Below are positions 17,942 through 59,417 of a stretch of DNA of 64,000 nt, in pieces. Source of the stretch: Thermoleophilia bacterium (GTDB taxonomy: Bacteria; Actinomycetota; Thermoleophilia; Gaiellales; F1-60-MAGs149); contig JBAXNN010000007.1 in assembly GCA_037133755.1 (NCBI GenBank), positions 26,545 through 90,544 of the forward strand, given 5' to 3'. Both the position numbers and the translations under genes were made by a program. Each line of letters starts with the position of its first letter. Position 1 is the first letter of the stretch. Under the pieces are notes generated by a model, which made no database searches, was not told the origin of the DNA, and worked only from the letters and a program-made list of their open reading frames with translations.

Positions 17942-17947
17942 CGATCC

Positions 17948-17998
17948 TGACGTTCGGCTTTGCTTTGGTGCCTGGCACCAAAGCAAAGCCGTGCGTCA
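17948..17998. repeat. Long inverted repeat between convergent genes (bidirectional terminator or REP-like)
   Basis: Perfect 18-bp arms CGGCTTTGCTTTGGTGCC-T-GGCACCAAAGCAAAGCCG (17955-17991), with further TGACG/CGTCA pairing outside. Confidence 0.9.
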
Positions 17999-19417
17999 GT
18001 GTCCGGTCAGCCAGTCGACGAACGTGCCGGCGCGCGAGGTCTTCGTGCCGGTCTCTTCCTGTGCCTCGGCGATGCGGAGCAGCTTGAGTGAGCCGTTGGC
18101 GGCGATCCACCGGGCCGGCTCCGGCTCCCACTTGCGCGAGTGGTGGTTGACCCACGGCAGCGTGGTGATGTCCGTGTCGCGCTGCAGGATCAGGTCGGCG
18201 AGCGTACGGCCGGCGAGGTTCGTGACCGCCACGCCGTCGCCGACGTAGCCGCCGGCCCAGCCCATGCCGGTGCGGCGATCGAGTCCGACGGACGATTGGA
18301 AGTCGCGCGGGATGCCGAGGACGCCGCCCCACGTATGAGTGATCTTGGCGTCGGCCGCAGCAGGGAAGAGCTTCGCGATGACGCCCTGCAGTCGGTCATG
18401 CACGGGCAGGTCGTAGAACTTCGTCTCGAGGCGACTGCCGAAGATGTACGGATGCCCGCGGCCGCCGAGGGCGATGCGATCGTCGGCCGTGCGCTGCGAA
18501 TAGATGAACAGTCGACGGCCATCGGAGAGAACCTCGCGACCGTTCCAGCCAATCTCGTCCCAAACGGACTGCGGCAGCGGCTCGGTCGCGACCATGCAGG
18601 AGGCGAAGGGCATCAGCTGGCGCTTTTCTCCCTTGAGCTCGGGTGTGAAACCCTCCGTGGCACGAATGACGATCTCGGCGTGCACGGTGCCGCGGTCCGT
18701 GAGCACCCGGCCCTGCTCGATCTTCGTGACGTTCGTGCCCTCGTAGATGCCGACACCACGGCGCTCGACGACGTCGGCGAGCCCGCGCGCCAGACGGGCG
18801 GGGTGGATGCGAGCGGCATGTGGGCAGAAGACCGTGCCGAGCGCTCCGGGCACGTTCGTCCTCGCGAGCGTCTCGTCGGCGGAGAGCAGCCGGTAATCGG
18901 CGTCCGTGTGGCCGAACGCATGGTGCGCCTCAACGGCATGCTGGGCATGCTGGAGGCCCACGTGTGTCATCGCGAGCGTAGACCAACCGCCCTTGAAGTA
19001 CTGGGCGTCGATGCCCTCCTTTACGAGCGCCGCGCCAATGACGTCGACCGTCTCGAAGCACGTTCGCTCGTACCGCATGACTGCGTCGTGGCCGTGATCC
19101 TTGACGAAGCGCGCGCGGCTGCCGGGGAGGCCGCCATAGCACCAGCCACCGTTACGACCGGAGGCGCCAAACCCGGCAATCTCCCGCTCCACGATGACGA
19201 TGCGCAGCGTTGGGTCGAGCTCGGTGAGGTAGTAGGCCGTCCACAGCCCCGTGAAGCCCGCGCCGACGATGGCGATATCTGCCTGGGTGTCGCCGGGCAG
19301 CGGGGCGCGCTGCGTGAGGGAGCCGGGTACCGAGTCGTGCCAGTAGCTGGTTGTGCGATAGCGCGCGTCCTCTCCCGTCGAACCGGGAGAGGCGGTGGAG
19401 GTCTCAGTCGTCGCCAT
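17996..19417 (-). CDS. FAD-dependent amine oxidoreductase (PuuB/DadA-like)
   Basis: IVGAGFTGLWTAYYL, GASGRNGG, IHPARLARGL, WGG, GYVGDGV; TACACT 6 nt before the ATG. Confidence 0.88.
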   Translation of the reverse strand: MATTETSTASPGSTGEDARYRTTSYWHDSVPGSLTQRAPLPGDTQADIAIVGAGFTGLWTAYYLTELDPTLRIVIVEREIAGFGASGRNGGWCYGGLPGSRARFVKDHGHDAVMRYERTCFETVDVIGAALVKEGIDAQYFKGGWSTLAMTHVGLQHAQHAVEAHHAFGHTDADYRLLSADETLARTNVPGALGTVFCPHAARIHPARLARGLADVVERRGVGIYEGTNVTKIEQGRVLTDRGTVHAEIVIRATEGFTPELKGEKRQLMPFASCMVATEPLPQSVWDEIGWNGREVLSDGRRLFIYSQRTADDRIALGGRGHPYIFGSRLETKFYDLPVHDRLQGVIAKLFPAAADAKITHTWGGVLGIPRDFQSSVGLDRRTGMGWAGGYVGDGVAVTNLAGRTLADLILQRDTDITTLPWVNHHSRKWEPEPARWIAANGSLKLLRIAEAQEETGTKTSRAGTFVDWLTGH

Positions 19418-25337: not shown

Positions 25338-26731
25338 GTCGCGCCGATCTGATCCAGCTCGCCTACCTCGTGGCGGCGGTGTGCTTCATCCTCGGCCTCA
25401 AGTGGCTGTCGTCACCCCGCTCGGCGCGTCGTGGCAACCAAGTCGCTGCCATCGGCATGGCGATTGCAATTGCAGCGACGCTGATCGATAGGCGCGTCGT
25501 CGACTACACCTGGATCGTCATCGCAGCAGTCGTGGGTGGCTCGATCGGCGCGGTGATCGCCCGTCGCGTCCAGATGACGGCGATGCCGCAACTGGTCGCG
25601 CTCCTCAACGGTCTCGGCGGCGGCGCAGCGGCGCTGATCGCGATCTCGGAGTATCACGCCCACGGTGCGCTCGGCGAGACGTCCCTTGGTGCGGTGACCG
25701 CCGTCTCGGTGATGTTCTCGGCGGTCGTGGGCTCGGTTTCGTTTGCCGGCAGTCTGATCGCCTTCGGCAAGCTGCAGGAGCTCCTCCCGGGACGCCCCAT
25801 CACGTGGCCGGCGCAGAAGGTGCTCAACGCGATCATCGGCATTGTGATCCTCGCCCTCGCGGTGTGGGCCTCGCTCGACGTGAACGATCCTGTCCTCTGG
25901 GTTGCGGTGGGGCTCGCGCTCGTCCTCGGTGCGGCTGCCGTACTGCCGATTGGCGGCGCCGACATGCCCGTCGTGATCGCGTTTCTGAATGCGTGCACCG
26001 GGCTTGCTGCCGCTGCGACGGGCTTCGCGCTTGGCAACGTGCTCCTCATCATCGCGGGCGTGCTGGTTGGTGCGAGCGGCACGATGCTGACGCAGTTGAT
26101 GTCGAAGGCGATGAACCGCTCGCTGACCAGCGTCCTGTTCGGTGCGTTCGGCGGCGGCGCCACGGGCGCGGCGTCCGGTGGGAGCGGTGGAGAGGCGTTG
26201 CCGGTGCTCGAGATTTCGCCCGCCGATCTCGCGGCGCAGCTCGTCTACGCGCGTCGCGTCGTGATCGTGCCGGGCTACGGGCTTGCCGTCGCGCAGGCAC
26301 AGCATCCGGTGCGCGAGCTGGCCGACCTTCTCGGTGAGCGAGGGGTCGACGTGACGTTCGCGATCCATCCCGTGGCTGGTCGCATGCCTGGGCACATGAA
26401 CGTGCTGCTCGCCGAAGCCGACGTGCCGTACGACAAGCTTCTTGAGATGGAAGAGGCCAATCCGGACTTCCCCCAGACCGACGTGGTGCTGGTGATCGGT
26501 GCCAACGATGTGGTGAATCCCGCCGCACGCGACGATCCGGACAGTCCCTTGCACGGTATGCCGATTCTCGAGGTGGATCACGCCGAGCACGTCATCGTCT
26601 TCAAGCGCTCGATGGCCTCCGGGTTCGCTGGTGTTGAGAACATGCTCTTCCACGATCCCAAGACCCGCATGCTGTTCGGCGATGCGCGCAAGAGCCTGAC
26701 GCAGCTCGTCCAAGACGTGCAGGCCGTCTAG
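25334..26731 (+). CDS. pntB: NAD(P) transhydrogenase subunit beta
   Basis: MTAMPQLVA, IGGADMPVVI, AMNRSL, PGYGLAVAQAQ, HPVAGRMPGHMNVLLAEA, GANDVVNPAA. Confidence 0.97.
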   Translation: MSRADLIQLAYLVAAVCFILGLKWLSSPRSARRGNQVAAIGMAIAIAATLIDRRVVDYTWIVIAAVVGGSIGAVIARRVQMTAMPQLVALLNGLGGGAAALIAISEYHAHGALGETSLGAVTAVSVMFSAVVGSVSFAGSLIAFGKLQELLPGRPITWPAQKVLNAIIGIVILALAVWASLDVNDPVLWVAVGLALVLGAAAVLPIGGADMPVVIAFLNACTGLAAAATGFALGNVLLIIAGVLVGASGTMLTQLMSKAMNRSLTSVLFGAFGGGATGAASGGSGGEALPVLEISPADLAAQLVYARRVVIVPGYGLAVAQAQHPVRELADLLGERGVDVTFAIHPVAGRMPGHMNVLLAEADVPYDKLLEMEEANPDFPQTDVVLVIGANDVVNPAARDDPDSPLHGMPILEVDHAEHVIVFKRSMASGFAGVENMLFHDPKTRMLFGDARKSLTQLVQDVQAV

Positions 26732-49330: not shown

Positions 49331-51136
49331 CTACGCGGCGATTGGGTCGTCGTGCCCGGCCAGCACGCTGAGGACCGCATCGGCGTGCCGCTCGAGGAAC
49401 GCCGGGCCAACCCCGGGGAGCAGGCTTAGGGCATCGGGCGTGGTCGGGCGCGTCGCCGCGATCGCGTGCAGCGTGGTGTCCTTGCCGATCACATAGGCCG
49501 GGACGCCCGCCTCCTTGGCGGCCGCGCTGCGCCAGGCCTTGAGAGCGATCAGGAGATCCTCGGGGACGTCGTCGGGGATCGGTGGGGCAGCCGACTTGCG
49601 CTTGGAACGCGTGCGCGTCGCGGCGGTCTCGGCCAGGATCTCGATCGGGCTGCAGATGTCGCAGCAGCGGCCGTCGGCAATCGGCTCCTGCTGGTCGCCG
49701 AAGTAGCGCAGCAACGTCAGGCGACGGCAGGAATCGCCCGCGGCGAAGGCCTGCGCCGAGTCGAGGCGATCCCACCGGCCGCCATCGATCTTGCGGGCAC
49801 GCAGGCGCACCTCTTCGGCACGGTCGGCACCCAGTCTGCGCAGCTTGATGCGGCCACGCCACAGCTGGCTCGAGCCGGGGAACAGCTCGGCGGCCCCGAC
49901 GGCCTCGGCCGAGGCCAGCCAGGCGCGGGCGTCGTCTTCGAAGGCGTCGAGCATGCGCGCGAGCTCGCTCGGGTTGGCAGAGAACTCGCCGGTGTCCTGA
50001 TCGGCGAGGTGGGCGAGCGCTGCGAGTACACGGTTGACCTCGTCGGCGCCGAAGTGCGCGCGGCGGATGAGTGCCCCGAGCACGCCACGGTCGCCACTGG
50101 AATGCAGCAGGACACACCGTGACGGCAGCCCGTCGCGGCCGGCACGGCCCGACTCCTGCGAGTACGCCTCAAGCGATTGGGGCAGACCCCAGTGCCAGAC
50201 CTGGCGGATGTCGGCCTTATCGACACCCATGCCGAAGGCGGTCGTGGCCACGATGATGCCGTCGTCCGACTCCATAAAGCGGTCCTGGCGGCGCTGGCGC
50301 TCGCTGCGCTCGAGTCCTGCGTGGTATGCCTGTGCCGGCAGGCCGACGGCGGCAAGTTCTTCGGCCACCATCTCGCTGTCTTTGCGCGTGCGCACGTAGA
50401 CGATCGCAGGTCGCATCGCGGCGTCGCGCATGCCGTCCTCAAGCAATTGCAGACGGCGTGCCTTACCGCTGGCCTCGATCGCATCGAACGTGAGGTTCGG
50501 GCGGTCGAAGCCGGTGTGCACCTCGACGGGATCCTGCATGGCGAGGCGACGGATGATGTCGATGCCCGTGGCGGTCGTGGCCGTGGCCGTCAGCGCCATC
50601 ACCGCAGTGGGCCGGATCTGCTCGCGCACCTGCGCGAGGCGTCCGTAGTCGGGTCGGAAGTCGTGGCCCCACTCAGACAGACAGTGCGCCTCGTCGACGA
50701 CGAGGAGATCCACACGCGCCTCGGCAAGCGCTGCGGCGAAGCGGGCGTTGGCGAAACGCTCGGGCGCCACGTAGAGCAGGCGTACGGCGGGGCCGGCGTC
50801 GAGCAGGTTGCCGCCATTGCCGCGCAGCGACTGCAGGATCGCCTCGACGTCCTCGCTGCTGGTATCGCTCGAGAGCGCAGCGACATCGGTGCGTCCGAGC
50901 TTGCGCAGCGCCTCGATCTGGTCGCGCATCAGGGCGAGTAGGGGCGAGACCACGATCGTGAGGCGCAGGGCGCCGAGCGCGGGCAGCTGATAGCAAAGCG
51001 ACTTGCCCGAGCCCGTGGGCATCACCACCAATGCATCGCGCCCGTCGAGCACGGCCTGCACCGCCTGCTCCTGGCCGGGGCGGAAGTCGTCGTGCCCGAA
51101 GACCTCGCGCAGCAGCTGATGTGGGTCGGCAGGCAC
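49331..51136 (-). CDS. recQ: RecQ family ATP-dependent DNA helicase with HRDC domain
   Basis: FRPGQ, MPTGSGKSLCYQ, VDEAHCLSEWGHDFRPDY, AFGMGVDK, QESGRAGRDG, CDIC Zn motif, C-terminal HRDC. Confidence 0.93.
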   Translation of the reverse strand: MPADPHQLLREVFGHDDFRPGQEQAVQAVLDGRDALVVMPTGSGKSLCYQLPALGALRLTIVVSPLLALMRDQIEALRKLGRTDVAALSSDTSSEDVEAILQSLRGNGGNLLDAGPAVRLLYVAPERFANARFAAALAEARVDLLVVDEAHCLSEWGHDFRPDYGRLAQVREQIRPTAVMALTATATTATGIDIIRRLAMQDPVEVHTGFDRPNLTFDAIEASGKARRLQLLEDGMRDAAMRPAIVYVRTRKDSEMVAEELAAVGLPAQAYHAGLERSERQRRQDRFMESDDGIIVATTAFGMGVDKADIRQVWHWGLPQSLEAYSQESGRAGRDGLPSRCVLLHSSGDRGVLGALIRRAHFGADEVNRVLAALAHLADQDTGEFSANPSELARMLDAFEDDARAWLASAEAVGAAELFPGSSQLWRGRIKLRRLGADRAEEVRLRARKIDGGRWDRLDSAQAFAAGDSCRRLTLLRYFGDQQEPIADGRCCDICSPIEILAETAATRTRSKRKSAAPPIPDDVPEDLLIALKAWRSAAAKEAGVPAYVIGKDTTLHAIAATRPTTPDALSLLPGVGPAFLERHADAVLSVLAGHDDPIAA

Positions 51137-51191
51137 AGATCGCAGTCTACGAACCGCGTCCCCACACGGCTGTGCCGGACTGTGCCGAGTT

Positions 51192-52136
51192 TCAGACGAG
51201 GATGCAGGCGGCGCGGTGGCCGTCGCCGCCTGCGGGCCGCAGCTGTGGGTCCTCGGACGAACAGGCCGCTGTGGCGACCGGGCAGCGCGGGTGGAAGCGG
51301 CAGCCGGTGGGTACGTCGGCGGGGTTCGGCGTCTCGCCCTGCAGGATCTCGGGCTGCATCGACTGCTCGGGATCAGGCTGGGGGACGACCGAGACCAGGG
51401 CCTTCGTATACGGGTGCTGCGGATTGCGGATGACCTCGTGGGCTGGGCCCTCTTCGACGATGCGGCCCAGGTACATCACGCAGATACGGTCGGCGTAGTG
51501 GGCAGCGGTGGAGAGGTCATGCGTGATCATCAGGATGCCCAGGCCGCTGGAGCGCAGTTCGTCGAGCAGTCCGAGGATGCCGGCGCGTACCGAGACGTCG
51601 AGCATGGAGACCGGCTCGTCGGCCAGTAGCATCGTGGGCTCGAGGGCGAGTGCGGCCGCGATCGAGACACGCTGGCGCTGCCCGCCCGACAGTTCGTGGG
51701 GGTAGCGCTCGAGGTACAGGTCGGCGGGAGTCAGGCCCGCACGCTCCATGGCGGCGCGAACGCGCTCGTCGCGGTTGTCGAGACCGTGGATCTCGAGCGG
51801 CTCGGCGACGATGTCCTTCACGCGGAAGCGCGGATCCAGCGACTCGTACGGATCCTGGAAGATGATCTGCAGCTCGCGCCGGATCGGGCGCATCTCGCGT
51901 TGCGTGGCGTTGGTGATGTCGCGATCGCGGTAGGTGATCGTGCCGCTCGTCGCCGGCACCATGCGCATCGCGGTCTGCGCCGTCGTCGTCTTGCCGCAGC
52001 CGGATTCGCCCACGAGTGCCACGAACTCACCGGCCGCGACCGTCAGCGAGACGCCGTCAACGGCCTTGACGACCTTCTTGCGTCCCTGGCGGTACTGGAC
52101 GACCAGGTCCTGGATCGTGAGCAGCGTCTCGCTCAT
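51192..52136 (-). CDS. Peptide/nickel ABC transporter ATP-binding protein (OppF/DppF-like)
   Basis: [45 protein letters not shown]. Confidence 0.93.
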
Positions 52137-53089
52137 GCGCTGACCTCGACGAAGCACGAGCCGCTGTGGCCTGGCTCGGCTGTGCGGGTGGGGGGATACG
52201 CCAGGGCACAGGCGTCGATCGCCGAATCGCAGCGGGGCCGGAACGGGCAGCCTGCAATCGGTTCGTCGAGGCGCGGGGGGGAACCGGGGATCGAGACGAC
52301 ATCGCGCTCGGCCAGCAGATCGGGTGTGGCGCCGAACAGCATGCGCGTGTACGGGTGCAGCGGGTGGTGGTACAGCTCGTTCGTCGTGCCGAGCTCGGTG
52401 ATGTGCCCGGCGTACATGACGGCTGCGCGCTGGCAGATCTGCGAGACCAGCGGCAGGTCGTGCGTGACCATGATCATCGCGAGACCGAGTTCGTCGGTGA
52501 GCCGCACGAGGAGCTCGAGGATCTGGGCCTGCACCATCACGTCGAGTGCGGTGGTGGGTTCGTCGGCGAGCAGCACCTTGGGCTGACAGGCCAGTGCCAT
52601 GGCGATCGCGGCGCGCTGACGCATGCCGCCCGAGAACTCGTGGGGGAAGCGATCCTGACGCTCGCCGCTGATGCCAACCAATTCCAGCAACTCGGCTGTG
52701 CGGGCGCGCGCGGCCTTGCCCTTGGCGAGGCCGGCGGTCTCGATCGGCTCCTGGATCTGCGAGCCGATGGTCTTGACCGGGTCGAACGCGTTCATCGCGC
52801 CTTGGAACACCATCGCGATGTCGTTCCAGCGGTGCAGGCGCATCGTCGCGTCTCCGCCCGCGAGGATGTCCTCGCCGTCGAGCAGGATGCGGCCGGCCGC
52901 GCTGGCGTTCGGCGGCAGGAGCCCCATCATCGCGAGGATCGCCGTGGTCTTGCCGCACCCGGACTCGCCCACGAGGCCCATGCGCTCGCCGCGTTCGAGT
53001 CCGAACGAGATGCCCTGCACGGCGTGCAGCTCCTTGTCGTCCGGCAGCTCGAACCAGACGTGGAGGTCTTCGACCGCGAGCACGCTCAC
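52133..53089 (-). CDS. Peptide/nickel ABC transporter ATP-binding protein (OppD/DppD-like)
   Basis: [38 protein letters not shown]. Confidence 0.93.
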   Translation of the reverse strand: MSVLAVEDLHVWFELPDDKELHAVQGISFGLERGERMGLVGESGCGKTTAILAMMGLLPPNASAAGRILLDGEDILAGGDATMRLHRWNDIAMVFQGAMNAFDPVKTIGSQIQEPIETAGLAKGKAARARTAELLELVGISGERQDRFPHEFSGGMRQRAAIAMALACQPKVLLADEPTTALDVMVQAQILELLVRLTDELGLAMIMVTHDLPLVSQICQRAAVMYAGHITELGTTNELYHHPLHPYTRMLFGATPDLLAERDVVSIPGSPPRLDEPIAGCPFRPRCDSAIDACALAYPPTRTAEPGHSGSCFVEVSA

Positions 53090-54039
53090 GAGCGATCCTC
53101 CTTGTCGGGCAAGGGGCGCAGACGAAAGTGTCGGCGGGAGAGGTGGCTCACCTTGAGGCGTGGGTTAAGCGAATCCTCGACGGCGGTCCCGAGCATGTTG
53201 AAGGCCATAATCACGAGGGCAACGGCGATACCCGGCGGCACGATCGCCCACCAGGCGCCGTACGAGATCGCGCTGCGCGAGAACGCGTTCTCGATCATCT
53301 TGCCCCAGCTCGTCACGCTCGGGTCGCCGAGGCCGAGGAACGAGATCGCCGTCTCGAGGAAGATCGCGAGGGCGACCATGAGCACCGTCTGCGCAAGCAG
53401 CAGCGGCATGATCTGCGGGATCACGTGCTTGAAGATGATCCGCGTGTGCGAGGCACCGAGCGCCTGGGCGCGCTTCACGTACGCGCGCTCGCGCACGACC
53501 TTCACCTGCGAGCGGATGAGCCGCGCCATGAAGGTCCAGTAGATCAGCCCGATGATCAGGATGATGTTGCGGAGACTGCGGCCCCAGATCGACGCGATCA
53601 CGATCATCAGCACGAGGTCGGGGATGACGAGGAAGTAGTCGGTGACGCGCATCAGCGCGTTGTCGACCTTGCCGCCGAAGTAGCCCGCGACGATGCCGAT
53701 CGTGCCGCCCACGAGCATGGCGACGACCGCGCCGGCGAAGCCGACGATCAGGGTGACGCGCGCGCCGTAGATGAGGAGCGACAGCATGTCGATGCCGCCG
53801 TCGTCGAGGCCTAGCGGATGCGCGCCCGATGGCGTACCGAAGATCGGACCGACCTGCTGGCGCTCGCCGTAGGGTGCGAGGTACGGCCCAAAGATGGCGA
53901 TGAACACGAACGCCAGCAGGATGATCGCGCCGACGACGGCCTGCGGGTGGTGGCGCAGAAACGACAGCGTGGCGCGCAGGCGCGAGGGCGGGCGCACGAC
54001 GTCGGGCAAGGCGGCTTGGGGTGGGTCGACGAAGCTCAC
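53086..54039 (-). CDS. ABC transporter permease (OppC/DppC-like)
   Basis: HPLGLD, GYFGGKVD, EAA loop YVKRAQALGAS, SFLGLG..SWG; GTG overlaps the upstream TGA. Confidence 0.92.
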   Translation of the reverse strand: MSFVDPPQAALPDVVRPPSRLRATLSFLRHHPQAVVGAIILLAFVFIAIFGPYLAPYGERQQVGPIFGTPSGAHPLGLDDGGIDMLSLLIYGARVTLIVGFAGAVVAMLVGGTIGIVAGYFGGKVDNALMRVTDYFLVIPDLVLMIVIASIWGRSLRNIILIIGLIYWTFMARLIRSQVKVVRERAYVKRAQALGASHTRIIFKHVIPQIMPLLLAQTVLMVALAIFLETAISFLGLGDPSVTSWGKMIENAFSRSAISYGAWWAIVPPGIAVALVIMAFNMLGTAVEDSLNPRLKVSHLSRRHFRLRPLPDKEDRS

Positions 54040-55010
54040 TCGGTCACCCGCGGGTCGAGTTTGAAGTAGAGGAGGTCGGCGATGAAGTTCATGATGATCA
54101 CCATCAGCGTCAGCAGTAGGAAGGCGCCCTGCAGCACCGGGTAGTCGCGGTTGCCGACGCTCTCGTATATCTGCAGGCCGATGCCGGGATAGTTGAAGAC
54201 CGTCTCGATCAGGATCGCGCCGCCGAGGATGAAGCCCAGCGAGAGGAAGATCAGCGTGACGATCGGCAGCATCGAGTTGCGCAAGGCGTGCTTGCGCACG
54301 ATCTCCCAGTTGGACAGGCCCTTCGCTCGCGCCGTGAGGATGTAGTCCTCGCCGAGCGCCTCGAGCATGGAGGAGCGCACGATCAGCGTGTATTCGCCGA
54401 ACAGCACGAGTCCGATGGTCGCGGCGGGCAGGATCATGTGCTTGAAGCGGTCGACGAGTTCGTTCCACGTGCCGGGGTTGTTGTACGCGAGGTAGGGATC
54501 GGCGATGTCGCTCGTCGGCAGGTGCAGCGGCCCGGCGAGATAAAGGATTAGCATCAACGCAAGCCATTGGGTCGGCAGGCTGTAGAAGAGGAGCCCGCCC
54601 CAGACCACGCCCTTGTCCGACAGCGTCCCGCGTCTCCACGCGGCTAAGACACCCGTGGTGATGCCGAGCATGATCGAGAGGATCGTGCCGAGCAGGATCA
54701 TCGGCACGGTGTTCTTGATCGGCTGCCAGAGCTCGTCGATGACCGGCTGCTCGGTGACGAACGACCGCCCGAGATCGCCCTTCGCCGTCTGCTCCAGGTA
54801 GATGACGTACTGCTCGGGAATCGACTTGTCGAGCCCGTACTCCTTCTTGAGGTTCTGCTTGAACTCCTCGGTGCAGCCCTGGCAGCGCAGGGCCGACGTG
54901 CGGTCACCCGGGGCGAGGCGGAACAGTACGAAGTTGAGGCTGATCGCGACGAAGATCGTGATCAGCGCGAACAACGCGCGTCGCCCGACGTACGACCAGC
55001 CTGCCCGCAT
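54036..55010 (-). CDS. ABC transporter permease (OppB/DppB-like)
   Basis: RRAL..., APGD, YGLDK, GDLGRS, EDYILTARAKGLS, ETVFNYPGIG, RDYPV. Confidence 0.93.
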   Translation of the reverse strand: MRAGWSYVGRRALFALITIFVAISLNFVLFRLAPGDRTSALRCQGCTEEFKQNLKKEYGLDKSIPEQYVIYLEQTAKGDLGRSFVTEQPVIDELWQPIKNTVPMILLGTILSIMLGITTGVLAAWRRGTLSDKGVVWGGLLFYSLPTQWLALMLILYLAGPLHLPTSDIADPYLAYNNPGTWNELVDRFKHMILPAATIGLVLFGEYTLIVRSSMLEALGEDYILTARAKGLSNWEIVRKHALRNSMLPIVTLIFLSLGFILGGAILIETVFNYPGIGLQIYESVGNRDYPVLQGAFLLLTLMVIIMNFIADLLYFKLDPRVTE

Positions 55011-55043
55011 CTAACGATCCTTGAATGCGGGCAGGCTGGTCGT
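54992..55043. repeat. Perfect 19-bp inverted repeat covering the permease start codon
   Basis: ACGACCAGCCTGCCCGCAT (54992-55010) / ATGCGGGCAGGCTGGTCGT (55025-55043), 14-nt loop. Confidence 0.95.
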
Positions 55044-55046
55044 CAT
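55011..55046 (-). CDS. Candidate 11-aa coupling mini-ORF MTTSLPAFKDR
   Basis: ATG overlaps the binding-protein stop (TGATG); its TAG directly abuts the permease ATG. Confidence 0.45.
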   Translation of the reverse strand: MTTSLPAFKDR

Positions 55047-56731
55047 CAGCCGTTCTGGTGGATGATGTCCCACGGGATCTTGGACAGGCCGATCAGGAAG
55101 GGCTCGCTGAGCCCGCCCCAGTTCTTGGAGTAGGCCGCAATCGACTGCTTCTGGGCGACCCAGAGGTAGGGGAGATCCGTGTTGAGGGTGTCCTGCATCT
55201 GCCAGACGATGTCCTTGCGCTTGGCAGCGTCGAGCGTCACGCCCTGCTCCGCGTAGAGCTTGTCGTACGCCGGGTTGCAGTAGCCCGTGTCGCTCCAGCC
55301 ACCAAGCTGGTTGCACAGGACGACGGAGAGCATGAAGTCCGGATCGATGTAGCCGACCCAGTCCCAGATCGCCATGTCGAAGTCCTCGTACTTCCAGTCC
55401 GGCGCACCGATCGCCTCGAAGGCGGCGGTGGAGTCGAGCTTCTTCGACGTGATCGTGATGCCGAGCTCGGCCCACGAGGTCTTGAGGATCTCGAAGAGGC
55501 GGTCGATGCCCTCGACGTTCTCGGGGGTGATGACCTCCCACTCGAACTTGGACCCGTCGGGACCGACGCGGATGCCGTCGGCGCCACGCTTGTACCCGGC
55601 GTCGTCGAGCATCTTGTTGGCAGCGGCGATGTCGTACGCCGGCGGCTTGATGTCCGTGTTCATGTACGGCGCCGAGAGGGGCGTGAGCAGCGTCGCCGAC
55701 GGCACGCCGTAGCCGGCGAGCACCGTGTCGATGATCTGCTGACGGTCGACGGCCACGTTGAGCGCCTGCTTGACCTTGGGGTCGAGCAGTTCCTTGTGGT
55801 TCTTCTTGTTCTTGTTGGAGTTGATCGGGATGTCGTAGAGGAACGACGAGTCGCCAATCTGGAGCGTGAACTTGGGATCAGCTGACCACTGTTTGGCGAG
55901 CGTCGGCGGCACCGTATCGGCCGAGTCGAGCTGACCACCCTTGAGCGCTGCCAGCATGGCGTCGGCGTTCTGGTACACGGTGATGCCGATCGCGTCGACG
56001 TGCGGCGCGGTGCGGTAATAGCCCGGGTTCTTCTTGAGGATCGTGGTGCCCTTCTTTTCGAACTTGTCGATGAAGAACGAGCCGCCGCCAACCTGTGGGC
56101 CGTCGCCGGTGGGATCCCACTTCTTGAGGCCCTTGCCCTTGTCGCCGACGATCGGCTCGACGATGTGCTGCGGGAGGATGAAGAACTGCTGCAGCTGCGG
56201 CAGCACATTGGAGGCGGCCTTGTCGTAGGTGATCACGACCGTCGTGTCGTCCGGTGCCTCGAGCTTCGTGGCATGCGCAAGGAACGGCGCGAGCATGGCA
56301 GCGGGGCCATCGGAGTACTTGATGATCAGGTTGCCCGTGAAGGCCGCGTCGGCCGCCGTCATCGGCTTGCCGTCGGACCACGTGGCGCCCGGGGCGAGCT
56401 TGAACGTCCAGACCTTGCCATCGGCCGAGGTCTCCCATGAGTCGGCCCAGTCGCCGGTGATCTTGTAGTCGGCGTCGTACTGGACGAGCGTGGGGTAGGT
56501 CTCGGTCCAGAGGATGTAGGACAGTGCCGAGAAGCCCACGAAGGGGTTGATCGAGTCGGGGTACGACGTCGTACCCATGCGGAAGATGCCGCCTTCCTTC
56601 ACGGGTGTGTCGCCGGTCGCCGCAGTGTTGCCGCCTCCGCCACCGCCTGGGGTTGTGGACGCGCCGCCGCCACACGCAGCCAGCACGGCCATTGTGAGCA
56701 GTAGCACTGCTCCGATGATGATCTTGCGCAT
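55046..56731 (-). CDS. ABC substrate-binding lipoprotein, family 5 (OppA/DppA-like)
   Basis: Lipobox LAA-C; WSDGKPMTAAD, GGGSF, VRQAL-like VKQAL. Alternative ATG at 56749. Confidence 0.92.
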   Translation of the reverse strand: MRKIIIGAVLLLTMAVLAACGGGASTTPGGGGGGNTAATGDTPVKEGGIFRMGTTSYPDSINPFVGFSALSYILWTETYPTLVQYDADYKITGDWADSWETSADGKVWTFKLAPGATWSDGKPMTAADAAFTGNLIIKYSDGPAAMLAPFLAHATKLEAPDDTTVVITYDKAASNVLPQLQQFFILPQHIVEPIVGDKGKGLKKWDPTGDGPQVGGGSFFIDKFEKKGTTILKKNPGYYRTAPHVDAIGITVYQNADAMLAALKGGQLDSADTVPPTLAKQWSADPKFTLQIGDSSFLYDIPINSNKNKKNHKELLDPKVKQALNVAVDRQQIIDTVLAGYGVPSATLLTPLSAPYMNTDIKPPAYDIAAANKMLDDAGYKRGADGIRVGPDGSKFEWEVITPENVEGIDRLFEILKTSWAELGITITSKKLDSTAAFEAIGAPDWKYEDFDMAIWDWVGYIDPDFMLSVVLCNQLGGWSDTGYCNPAYDKLYAEQGVTLDAAKRKDIVWQMQDTLNTDLPYLWVAQKQSIAAYSKNWGGLSEPFLIGLSKIPWDIIHQNG

Positions 56732-56847
56732 CGAACCCTCCCTCTCCATGGAACCCTCCTCAGGGTGCTGCGCAGTCTAACCGCTTGGTCAGGAGGTGTG
56801 TACTGGTCGAGTGATCAGCGCCGCCGCGGCTGTGCGAGAATCGAACG

Positions 56848-57906
56848 GTGCAGTTGGACCTTGACGTCATCTCGCTCTACGCCGAGGGCTGTGCAATTCT
56901 CGGCACGGGTGGCGGTGGCGACATCTACGTGCCGACGCTCATCGCGCGCGAGGCACTGGCCGAATGTGGCGCTGTGCCAGTGATCGCCGCTACAGATCTG
57001 CCGGACGATGCACTGGTGCTCCCCGTCGGTGGCTGGGGCGCGCCAACGGTCTGCATCGAGAAGTTCGACTCGGGGGACGAAGGCCGGCTGCTGTGCGAGG
57101 CAGCCGAGGCGTGGTTTGGTCGCAAGGTCGATGCGCTCATGCCGTCGGAGATCGGTGGGGGAAACGGGGTGCAGTTGGTCTCCTGGTGCGCGCGGCTCGG
57201 GTTGCCGATGGTGGATGCCGACGGCATGGGCCGAGCATTCCCCGAAGGTGACATGTGCTCCATGCATCTGATGAACGTGCCGCCCTCGCCGGGCTTTTTC
57301 GCCGACGAGCGTGGTCGCGTCGTCACGGTGACGCCCGACGATGCGCACGGCCTCGAGGTGGCGGCGCGCCAGTGTGTGATCGAGTCGGGCGGTGTCTGCG
57401 CTGGCGCCGATCACCCGATGGACGGTGCGACCGTACGCGCCGCGACGATCCATGGCAGCGTGTCGCTGGCGCTTGCCATCGGCACAGCGCTTGAGGAGGG
57501 CGGTGTCGACGGTGTGCTCGAAGCCACGGCTGGTGTCCGCCTTGCCACGGGCAAAGTCGTGGATGTTGAGCGCCTGACGACCGACGGTTTCGCTCGCGGC
57601 GTGGTGCGGCTCGAGGGGACCGGCGACGATGCGGGGCGCTCGCTCACGATTCAGGTGCAGAACGAGAACCTGATCGCGACGGAGGGCGACCGCGTGCTCG
57701 CGTCGACGCCCGACCTGATCACGATTCTCGATGCCGGTACCGGCCGGGCTGTACCGACCGAACGCGTTCGCTACGGGCAGCGCGTCGCGATCGTCGGCAT
57801 CCCGTGCGCGCCGATCTGGCGCACGCAGCGCGGCCTCGAAGTCGCCGGGCCCGAGCGCTTCGGCTATCCCGGCCCGTGGCGACCGGTCGAGGAGCTCGCA
57901 CGATGA
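56848..57906 (+). CDS. DUF917 family protein
   Basis: GCAILGTGGGG, GAP, EIGGGNG, VDADGMGRAFPE, QNENL, PDLITILD, YGQRV. Confidence 0.88.
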   Translation: MQLDLDVISLYAEGCAILGTGGGGDIYVPTLIAREALAECGAVPVIAATDLPDDALVLPVGGWGAPTVCIEKFDSGDEGRLLCEAAEAWFGRKVDALMPSEIGGGNGVQLVSWCARLGLPMVDADGMGRAFPEGDMCSMHLMNVPPSPGFFADERGRVVTVTPDDAHGLEVAARQCVIESGGVCAGADHPMDGATVRAATIHGSVSLALAIGTALEEGGVDGVLEATAGVRLATGKVVDVERLTTDGFARGVVRLEGTGDDAGRSLTIQVQNENLIATEGDRVLASTPDLITILDAGTGRAVPTERVRYGQRVAIVGIPCAPIWRTQRGLEVAGPERFGYPGPWRPVEELAR

Positions 57907-59417
57907 GCGATCTGCGCATCGGGATCGACGTCGGCGGCACCAACACCGACGCCGTGCTGCTCGGCCCTGACAACGCATTGCTCGCCCGCTGCAAGACGCC
58001 GACGACCGCCGACCCGCTCGACGGCATCGCGACGGCGCTGGCCGCGGTCGCGCCCGACGATCGCAGCTCGGTGGGTATGGCCGCGCTCGGCACCACCCAC
58101 GCGTTGAACGCCATCCTGCGCCGCCGCGAGCTCGGCCGCGTCGCGGTGCTGCGACTCGCCGCACCGGCGACGCTGTCCGTGCCGCTCTTCGCCGACTGGC
58201 CTGCCGACCTGCGCGCGGCGATCGACGGCGGGGGCGCGATCGTGGCAGGCGGCGTGGAGATCGACGGACGGACGCACGCGCTTGACCCTGACGAGATCCG
58301 ACGTGTGCTCGCGGCCTGTGGTCCGGTGGATGCCGTGGCGATCGCGGGCATTTTCTCGATGCAGGATCCCTCGCAGGAGCTCGAGGCAGCGGCGCTTGTG
58401 CGCGCCGAGCTCGGCGACGACGTCGGCATCTCGCTGGGGCACCTGGTCGGTGGAGTGGGCCTCCTGGAGCGCGAGAACGCTGCGATTCTCAATGGTGCGC
58501 TCGGCGGCGTGGCGCGTCGCGTGATCGACGGCTTCGAGCAGGCGCTCGCCGGCTGCGGCCTTGCGGCTACGCCATTCCTCACGCAGAACGACGGCACGCT
58601 GATGTCGATCGAGCAGGCACGCGAACTGCCGGTGCTGACGATTGGCGGCGGCGCGTCCAATTCGATTCGTGGCGCCGGCGTGTTGACGGGCCTGACCGAC
58701 GCGCTGGTCATCGACGTGGGTGGCACCAGCACCGACGTTGGCGCGATCAGTGGTGGCTTTCCGCGCGAGTCGGCCTTCGGCGTGGAGCTTGGCGGAGTGC
58801 AGACGAATTTCCGCATGCCCGACGTCGTCTCCGTGGCGATTGGCGGTGGCACGATCGTGCATTCGAACGGCTCGCTCGGGCCGGAGAGCGTGGGGTACCG
58901 CATCGCCAACGACGCGCGCATCTTCGGCGGTGCTGTCGAGACCCTGTCGGACCTCGCGGTCGCTGCGGGGCGCGCGACGATGGGTGATCCCGCCCTGGCA
59001 GGAGCGCCACGACCGGAGGTGCTCGCGGCCGCCGACGCAATGGTGGCCGATGCCGTCGACCGCATGAAGCTCGTTGCGGGAGACACGCCGCTGATCGCGG
59101 TGGGCGGGGGCAGCGCGGTACTGCCCGATCAGATTCCCGGGTGCTCCGAGGTCCTGCGCCCTGCCGACTACGACGTGGCGAACGCGATCGGTGCCGCCGT
59201 CGGTCTGGTGAGTGGCGACGCCGAGCATGTGCTCGATCTGGGAGCCGATCGTGCGGCCGGCATAGAAGCCGTGCGGGCCGATGCCGCCGAACGTGCCCGC
59301 CGCGCCGGTGCGGCCGTCGAACTCCTCGAGGTGATCCGTGTGGATGAGGTGCCGCTGGCGTACACCGATCCGCCGATGTCGCGCGTGCGCGTCAAGGTCG
59401 CCGGACCGCCCGCCTAG
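57903..59417 (+). CDS. Hydantoinase/oxoprolinase family protein (A-type)
   Basis: IGIDVGGTNTDAVL, LGTTHALNAI, ERENAAILN, QNDGT, SNSIRGA, DVGGTSTDVG, GGGS, VANAIGAA. Confidence 0.9.
   Translation: MSDLRIGIDVGGTNTDAVLLGPDNALLARCKTPTTADPLDGIATALAAVAPDDRSSVGMAALGTTHALNAILRRRELGRVAVLRLAAPATLSVPLFADWPADLRAAIDGGGAIVAGGVEIDGRTHALDPDEIRRVLAACGPVDAVAIAGIFSMQDPSQELEAAALVRAELGDDVGISLGHLVGGVGLLERENAAILNGALGGVARRVIDGFEQALAGCGLAATPFLTQNDGTLMSIEQARELPVLTIGGGASNSIRGAGVLTGLTDALVIDVGGTSTDVGAISGGFPRESAFGVELGGVQTNFRMPDVVSVAIGGGTIVHSNGSLGPESVGYRIANDARIFGGAVETLSDLAVAAGRATMGDPALAGAPRPEVLAAADAMVADAVDRMKLVAGDTPLIAVGGGSAVLPDQIPGCSEVLRPADYDVANAIGAAVGLVSGDAEHVLDLGADRAAGIEAVRADAAERARRAGAAVELLEVIRVDEVPLAYTDPPMSRVRVKVAGPPA

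Follow-up and report, generated by a model that had tools for sequence, protein, structure and literature searches.

It is only partly understood how a single operon of an ATP-binding cassette (ABC) importer yields binding protein in large excess over translocator, and the known answers lie at the transcript level (internal terminators, repetitive extragenic palindromic (REP) elements). In enterobacteria, REP elements are found at malE-malF and hisJ-hisQ, where they presumably keep the binding protein in excess of the translocator. Our analysis of a 64,000-nt stretch of DNA from a Thermoleophilia bacterium (hereafter the window; GenBank assembly GCA_037133755.1, contig JBAXNN010000007.1, forward-strand positions 26,545 to 90,544) suggests a translational answer at the junction between the solute-binding-protein (SBP) gene and the first permease gene of an importer operon, where a long RNA hairpin would switch off independent initiation of the permease and a tiny open reading frame (ORF; hereafter the mini-ORF), coupled at both ends, would meter the ribosomes. 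Models of RNA unfolding and of reinitiation, and the notion of a short ORF "delivering" ribosomes, are established (PMC12548453, PMC6728339), and there are experimental precedents elsewhere for unfolding by upstream translation and for termination-reinitiation at tight stop/start junctions (PMC12548453, PMC6728339, PMC11260477). According to a 2025 review, the choice between the RNA-unfolding model of coupling and that of ribosome reinitiation is unresolved (PMC12548453), and a Shine-Dalgarno sequence before the restart codon is important in most, not all, of the bacterial gene pairs tested (PMC6728339). The principle of translational coupling is known and the present arrangement is new; no description of a doubly coupled mini-ORF across a start-codon hairpin between SBP and permease genes was found in the open-access literature.

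Several described systems share a part of this design. In E. coli rpmI-rplT, MS2 coat-lysis/replicase and f1 genes VII-IX (PMC12548453, PMC6728339), as at our locus, the start region lies in a stable helix of which one strand is read by upstream ribosomes, and downstream translation is expected to depend on upstream translation. In those cases the unwinding ORF is a real protein gene, whereas at our locus the binding-protein gene ends before the top of the helix is reached, and the unwinding would fall to an apparently dedicated frame of 10-11 codons, without a conserved product and coupled at both ends. A short ORF ending at the structured start of the main gene is also found in the plasmid leaders tap-repA (R1), repY-repZ and repB-repA (IncI/IncB) and repR-repA (IncI2), where the leader peptide has no known function and the main gene requires leader translation and reinitiation (PMC8053102 and references therein). 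Unlike these leaders, which lie at the mRNA 5' end with a ribosome-binding site of their own and are targeted by an antisense RNA, the present frame is intercistronic, has no Shine-Dalgarno sequence, would be fed by terminating upstream ribosomes and shows no evident regulator. Two actinobacterial cases are also comparable. The passage on mycobacterial interspersed repetitive units (MIRUs) in PMC12548453 (after Supply et al. 1997) describes an intercistronic insert with a small ORF that overlaps the preceding stop as well as the following start, which lets coupling survive the insert; as presented there, MIRUs are dispersed and often tandemly repeated, whereas our element is single-copy and half of it is the coding sequence of the permease itself. 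In Mycobacterium tuberculosis, PPE2 has no independent initiation and follows a short upstream ORF (uPPE2) by a tight stop/start (PMC11260477), but uPPE2, preceded by a Shine-Dalgarno sequence of its own, is part of a 5' leader under riboswitch control, and the case has neither a start-codon hairpin nor coupling to an upstream gene.

The hairpin itself and its place in the operon have other counterparts. The stem-loops downstream of SBP genes in Ruminiclostridium, which are internal terminators (PMC9045158), are likewise GC-rich hairpins directly after the binding-protein gene, with the same presumed purpose; these terminators and the REP elements lie in the intergenic spacer, are followed by at least a weak U-tract or else are members of a repeat family, and exert their effect on the transcript, whereas the present hairpin lacks a U-tract, takes in 19 nt of the permease gene and occludes its start codon. 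The locus may also be regarded as a natural counterpart of synthetic coupling devices, since bicistronic design and synTCE (PMC11602170, PMC12548453) likewise combine an initiation-suppressing hairpin, a ribosome-binding site in the loop, a close stop/start and a stem unwound by the ribosome of an upstream frame, and synTCE behaves as an unfolding-coupled device (PMC11602170). The engineered devices have stems of 6-12 bp and a full upstream cistron, in contrast to the stems of 13-19 bp with extensions, and the second coupling step, of the natural locus.

On the minus strand the junction reads ...CAG AAC GGC TGA-TG ACGACCAGCCTGCCCGCAT TCAAGGATCGTTAG ATGCGGGCAGGCTGGTCGT ACG.... The binding-protein gene ends in a TGA (55048-55046) whose A is shared with the ATG of the mini-ORF (55046-55044), giving the overlap TGATG. 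The mini-ORF (MTTSLPAFKDR, 11 codons; 55011..55046, minus) has ten further sense codons and ends in a TAG (55013-55011) which abuts the permease ATG (55010-55008) in frame, 0 nt apart; no recognisable Shine-Dalgarno motif precedes its AUG. The stem is a perfect helix of 19 bp with 13 G-C pairs, formed by 55043-55025 with 55010-54992. Its 5' arm ACGACCAGCCTGCCCGCAT (55025..55043, minus), supported by sequence, folding and covariation with the 3' arm, corresponds to codons 2-8 of the mini-ORF, and its 3' arm (54992..55010, minus), seen in the sequence and by RNAfold, is the start codon of the permease together with 16 nt after it (M R A G W S and 1 nt). The 14-nt loop TCAAGGATCGTTAG (55011..55024, minus) holds the stop of the mini-ORF and the Shine-Dalgarno-like AAGGA (55022-55018, or -12 to -8), 7 nt before the permease ATG, and a purine-rich GGA/GAGG core occupies the same loop position in most orthologues. 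This anatomy is the one given in a preliminary description of the window made from its letters, and the fold predicted there was borne out by RNAfold, since the 131 nt around the junction reached -70.6 kcal/mol against -47.0 +/- 3.9 kcal/mol in 200 shuffles (z = -6.06), none of which was as good.

In the minimum free energy (MFE) structure the helix is 8 pairs longer, below the 19-bp stem. The 5' strand of this lower extension, CG.CTGATG (55044..55052, minus), also supported by the pair counts of alignment columns 10-15 with 78-83, takes in the binding-protein stop and the mini-ORF ATG, and the 3' strand, CGTCGG.CG (54982..54990, minus), lies in permease codons 7-10. The binding-protein gene itself spans the lower helix only, the mini-ORF spanning the whole 5' arm and the loop. 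In the free RNA, constraint folding predicts that the permease AUG is unpaired with a probability of about 8e-4, the Shine-Dalgarno-like sequence of the loop being about 70% unpaired. A ribosome standing on the binding-protein stop would melt the lower helix together with the first third of the stem, leaving 12 G-C-rich base pairs; the AUG remains closed in this state (again about 8e-4) and is predicted to be exposed only by translation of the mini-ORF. By our own estimate, about 0.003 perfect 19-bp hairpins (loops of 3-30 nt) are expected by chance in this genome (2.45 Mb, 67.6% GC). The genome contains 114 hairpins with a perfect stem of at least 13 bp, for about 5 expected, again by our own estimate, so that the length of the stem alone is not special; its position and its conservation are. 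The terminator scan found no intrinsic terminator with a U-tract at the hairpin, whose 3' flank is ACGUCGGGCGAC. The search with Rfam covariance models gave no match and only sub-threshold hits to miRNA hairpin models.

Orthologous junctions were taken from species genomes of the genus and the family, from named genome records and from metagenome contigs. Once duplicates were removed, these sources gave 24 distinct junctions at the level of the genus, with permeases at least 79% identical, and 42 others at 50-68% identity. The same hairpin was present in 24 of the 24 genus-level junctions, with sequence differences and in independent metagenome-assembled genomes (MAGs) or metagenome assemblies, and was absent from the 42 more distant orthologues and from two other genera of the same family. 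At equal GC, the mean MFE over 80 nt was -48.5 kcal/mol for the first set and -25.2 kcal/mol for the second. A permease tree built without the stem codons separates the subclade of the window (groups A, B, D and L051; 17 junctions) from a sister subclade (groups C and E; 7 junctions).

In the alignment of these junctions (A2), the 25 helix pairs were formed in 84.5% of the cells, against 30-40% when the 3' partners were slid by 1-3 columns, and 12 core pairs were formed in almost every cell. Compensatory changes, which the preliminary description would lead one to look for at orthologous junctions, were found at four or five pairs. Both sides change at columns 23-69 (G-C / A-U), 26-66 (G-C / U-A / A-U, where the third position of Ala3 varies as GCC, GCA and GCT together with its partner), 29-63 (C-G / G-C) and 34-58 (U-A / C-G, where the start codon passes from ATG to GTG and the T opposite becomes C). 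In permease codons 2-6, the third positions are fixed within groups and change between groups only with the partner base, whereas codons 8-20 vary freely. Among the non-Watson-Crick cells, G.U was found in 80 and A.C in 8, which fits a helix of the sense-strand RNA and is supportive only, as the composition of the arms favours G.U opportunities.

The genus-wide persistence of the hairpin bears also on simpler origins. The 24 distinct versions in independent assemblies exclude the local inverted-duplication assembly artefact which the preliminary description had kept as a possible cause. A functionless DNA palindrome, whether left by a recent template switch that duplicated the permease start in inverted orientation or by a small mobile element which lands on start codons, similar to a MIRU or to a miniature inverted-repeat transposable element (MITE), would account for a 5' arm that is the exact reverse complement of the first 19 nt of the permease. 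The 114 long perfect hairpins of the genome, which include dispersed families, and the start-codon-targeting elements with built-in coupled ORFs, of which the passage on MIRUs in PMC12548453 gives an example, speak in the same sense. However, no copy of the 19-mer was found elsewhere in the genome, and in each of 27 genomes of the genus the covariance model made from A2 had a single strong hit, which in every case was at this junction, so that a dispersed repeat of the REP, MIRU or MITE type was rejected. Furthermore, the stem persists across the genus with permeases only 80% identical, much changed synonymous sites, and compensatory and G.U-biased changes. We consider a functionless palindrome very improbable; inverted duplication is a plausible origin of the stem and is insufficient to explain its maintenance. 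A palindromic operator for a protein is also unlikely, the pairing being conserved and the sequence not. As judged from these comparisons of sequences, the hairpin is a selected, single-copy, locus-specific and genus-wide RNA structure which covaries, and it very probably functions as an RNA element preventing the permease from being initiated independently.

The mini-ORF has its own pattern of conservation. The preliminary description proposed to check orthologues for a retained stop/start frame, which was observed in the subclade of the window and not in the sister subclade, where 6 of the 7 sequences lack it. An ATG overlapping the TGA of the binding-protein gene, followed by 10-11 open codons and a stop that abuts the permease start, is present in 17 of the 17 junctions of the subclade of the window. 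The overlap is obtained in two ways, as GGC TGA TGA (TGATG) in groups A and L051 and as GGA TGA (ATGA) in groups B and D, GGA being a rare codon (5.1% of Gly codons). The abutting stop is TAG in 11 sequences, TGA in 5 and TAA in 1, and the sole indel of the mini-ORF among the subclade sequences is of 3 nt, in L051, and leaves the frame intact. The encoded peptides are unrelated between groups (MTTSLPAFKDR, MISNRRATNGL, MNDRQPATIEY, MISRPAHEER), and the middle codons are the complement of the permease M-R-A-G-W codons. Taken together, the two overlap solutions, the changing identity of the stop, the indel of 3 nt and the unconserved peptide argue for selection of the translation of the mini-ORF and not of its sequence. 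Ten doubly coupled mini-ORFs were found in the genome, among which this one has by far the strongest fold (-55.7 kcal/mol, against -16 to -37 kcal/mol); none of the nine others has a notable fold that would make it a second relay. At the outgroup junctions, doubly coupled frames occur in 2 of 42 and are unconserved there. In two distant orthologues from other Gaiellales families, L025 (G040) and L064, frames of 13-14 codons overlap both neighbouring genes, at the binding-protein stop as ATGA or GTGA and at the permease start as GTGA, and no hairpin is present; these frames are probably due to chance, close relatives being without them.

These data also bear on two readings that give the mini-ORF a coding role; a conserved functional or stalling micropeptide was rejected, as the peptide differs between groups. 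In the cat/cmlA and ermC leaders, the initiation region of the next gene is hidden by a hairpin whose 5' arm carries a short ORF. The similar layout of our locus would fit a translation-attenuation leader peptide, at which a ribosome stalled by a ligand or by tRNA charging would keep the stem from closing, with induction of the permease, and an analogy between RNA unfolding and attenuation is drawn in PMC12548453. Against this, the peptides of groups A, B, D and L051 differ completely and no stalling motif recurs among them, the choice of the middle codons is set by complementarity to the permease codons, and the frame crosses the whole arm and the loop, so that any translating ribosome would open the stem and no stall is needed; we give this possibility very little weight. 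The preliminary description had also proposed amber read-through giving an N-terminally extended permease, as the mini-ORF is in frame with the permease and only one stop codon lies between them. With all three stop codons occurring at this position, an extension that is unconserved, and an M-R start common to outgroups without an upstream frame, stop-codon read-through appears hardly credible.

We lean slightly towards the mini-ORF being a ribosome bridge in the lineage of the window, which would restore coupling across the hairpin. In this mechanism, the gap of only 35 nt between the binding-protein and permease genes would mean that the 3' arm of the hairpin had to be made of the first codons of the permease, namely its first 19 nt. 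With the AUG buried and the Shine-Dalgarno-like sequence in the loop, free 30S subunits could not start the permease. Translation would instead proceed in four steps: (i) part of the ribosomes terminating at the binding-protein TGA would restart on the overlapping AUG of the mini-ORF, probably with a low yield because this AUG is without a Shine-Dalgarno sequence; (ii) these ribosomes would translate the 10-11 codons through the 5' arm and the loop and melt the stem; (iii) they would terminate at the stop abutting the permease AUG, with the AUG region in the ribosome channel and the Shine-Dalgarno sequence just behind; and (iv) they would restart at the permease AUG, aided by the Shine-Dalgarno sequence of the loop. 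The downstream genes would follow via ordinary GTGA overlaps, leaving the chain of coupling intact, and the two serial low-yield restarts would make the permease output a small fixed fraction of the binding-protein output. We infer from the sequence the translation of the mini-ORF, both reinitiation steps, and the effects on stoichiometry or mRNA stability.

The genome contains four family-5 binding-protein/permease junctions, and all four have a strong hairpin, only the one studied here having a mini-ORF. Two of these hairpins are purely intergenic (contigs C12 and C3). The remaining one, in a paralogous operon on C13 (L129:1455-1535, also L130 and L131), is a hairpin of -47 kcal/mol in which the Shine-Dalgarno region GGAGGGGGAAGA is paired with permease codons 2-7 and the GTG start stands at the apex; this structure is kept in the three genomes having that operon, which are near-identical there, with G.U to G-C / A-U changes. 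The hairpins at all four junctions, together with the known SBP-distal stem-loops, point to a transcript-level role as the primary one, so that across the genus the hairpin probably acts first as a 3'-end barrier or as a U-tract-less partial terminator favouring binding-protein transcripts. Start occlusion would then be a consequence of where the hairpin is placed, for which the bridge frame compensates.

Several observations weigh against a hairpin selected as RNA and bridged by the mini-ORF. Compensatory changes in a DNA palindrome could be aided by template-switch correction, and not result from selection on the RNA alone. The bridging frame is missing in 6 of the 7 sister-subclade sequences (five of group C, and L019), in which the hairpin is kept and is equally strong or stronger (-49 to -61 kcal/mol). 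The five group-C sequences retain a TAG abutting the GTG start, and no start codon, canonical or near-cognate, was found for their frame; the seventh sister sequence, L058, has a GTGA-coupled frame of 9 codons across the 5' arm, with its stop 9 nt before the ATG. An open frame of 11 codons is unremarkable at 68% GC, the ATG of the mini-ORF is within the lower helix and its conservation may be partly structural, and the 17 sequences are phylogenetically related, so that 17 of 17 represents few independent events. Besides, the start of the mini-ORF has no Shine-Dalgarno sequence, and in several of the E. coli gene pairs tested such a lack reduces reinitiation (PMC6728339). The C13 paralogue and the sister subclade show that hairpin-locked permease starts are viable without a relay, which is the strongest point against an essential relay; the relay is therefore not needed for maintenance of the hairpin. 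The preliminary description held that the permease is translated only when ribosomes reinitiate on the mini-ORF, which is too strong, and it took orthologues with the stem and without the ORF as evidence against itself; such orthologues exist in the sister subclade, and they partly refute its strong form. Of the ribosome relay opening the stem, what stands is the covariation of the stem, the conserved ORF and the result of the constraint folding, and what speaks against it is the stem kept elsewhere without the ORF.

These points lend some weight to a reading in which the hairpin is only a binding-protein-distal mRNA element (3'-end stabiliser, U-tract-less partial terminator or RNase III site) and the mini-ORF an untranslated or irrelevant by-product, the binding-protein transcript being in excess and the permease strongly damped. 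RNase III can act on a helix of about 27 bp, which is the approximate length of the helix in the window. The strong hairpins at four of four family-5 junctions (two intergenic, one over the Shine-Dalgarno sequence and GTG, and this one) are in agreement with this reading, as are the stem without a bridging frame in 6 of 24 genus-level orthologues, the stem-loops downstream of SBP genes acting as internal terminators and stabilisers in Clostridia (PMC9045158), and a second hairpin borrowing the first codons of the next gene, at a glutathione-S-transferase (GST) gene of the same genome. It leaves unexplained, however, the ATG/stop overlap kept by two sequence solutions, one of them with the rare GGA, and the codon before the permease start that is always a stop, of changing identity (TAG, TGA, TAA), with a sole indel of 3 nt; in addition, no U-tract is present and the terminator scan is empty at the site. 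We regard a hairpin acting alone as rather unlikely, and it is not exclusive of the bridge.

In its fullest form, the proposal is that hairpin and mini-ORF make up a hard-wired two-step relay, with a dedicated intercistronic bridge ORF evolved or retained to carry terminating ribosomes across the hairpin, which we put forward tentatively as a possibility somewhat short of even. If so, the binding-protein:permease stoichiometry would be set translationally, as the product of two reinitiation efficiencies, and the hairpin would be a transcript-level element that, in a streamlined genome, invaded the start of the next gene. Group C and the C13 paralogue, with a hairpin and no bridge, would then be an alternative setting in which the permease is almost off, and bridge ORFs would be an overlooked class of non-peptide-coding small ORFs in operons. 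A genus with hairpin-with-bridge and hairpin-without-bridge variants also offers a comparative series for the RNA-unfolding and reinitiation models. If on the contrary the mini-ORF is irrelevant, the locus would be another binding-protein-distal hairpin, notable only for extending into the next gene.

The operon is of the peptide-type ABC importer order: binding protein, mini-ORF, permease 1, permease 2, ATPases. The binding-protein gene (55046..56749, minus) encodes a family-5 SBP_bac_5 lipoprotein of 567 aa (Pfam PF00496, E = 1.2e-72) with an N-terminal lipoprotein signal and the lipobox LAAC. Directly upstream of it, a 449-aa ORF (56815-58164, minus) had no Pfam match at E <= 0.001. The DppB/OppB-type permease 1 (54036..55010, minus; 324 aa) matches PF00528 and PF19300 in Pfam. 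A tight stop/start arrangement is found at all junctions of the operon, those of permease 1 with permease 2 (54036-54039, where the stop of the first overlaps the GTG of the second as GTGA at 54039-54036) and of permease 2 with the first ATPase (53086-53089) being 4-nt GTGA overlaps. The M-R start of the permease is aligned with the M-R starts of distant orthologues. A later start, which would make the hairpin intergenic, was ruled out by this homology with the outgroup starts and by the absence of any in-frame ATG, GTG or TTG before codon 13. A promoter of the permease's own, or a leaderless mRNA, was also rejected, as a search of both strands of 50500-58500 gave no promoter-like site and no TANNNT box precedes the ATG, unlike at the GST gene. 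Near-identical loci occur in MAGs of uncultured freshwater Gaiellales (Actinomycetota).

Among the perfect stems of at least 13 bp in the genome, only the GST locus, besides the present one, buries a start codon. At this site (L141, contig C8:82953-83005, minus, outside the window), a perfect hairpin of 21 bp includes the ATG and the first 16 nt of a GST-like gene, and its 5' arm carries a frame of 8 codons whose TGA overlaps the GST-like ATG. The start-containing stem is found in some relatives with a compensatory change (GAGGGTG/CACCCTC versus GAGAGTG/CACTCTC) and is absent in other lineages, while all lineages conserve a TANNNT box 6-7 nt upstream of the ATG, which suggests that the GST-like gene is leaderless. 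The hairpin would then be an upstream terminator or a REP-like element borrowing the first GST codons, and the site was rejected as a second relay, since the gene seems to be leaderless and to lend its first codons to a hairpin upstream. The long hairpins of the genome look REP-like and intergenic; they include dispersed palindromic families, such as TTTGGATCCGGATCCAAA and GGGTCAGACCC-containing units, with stems of up to 40 bp, and one example in the window is at 17947-17999.

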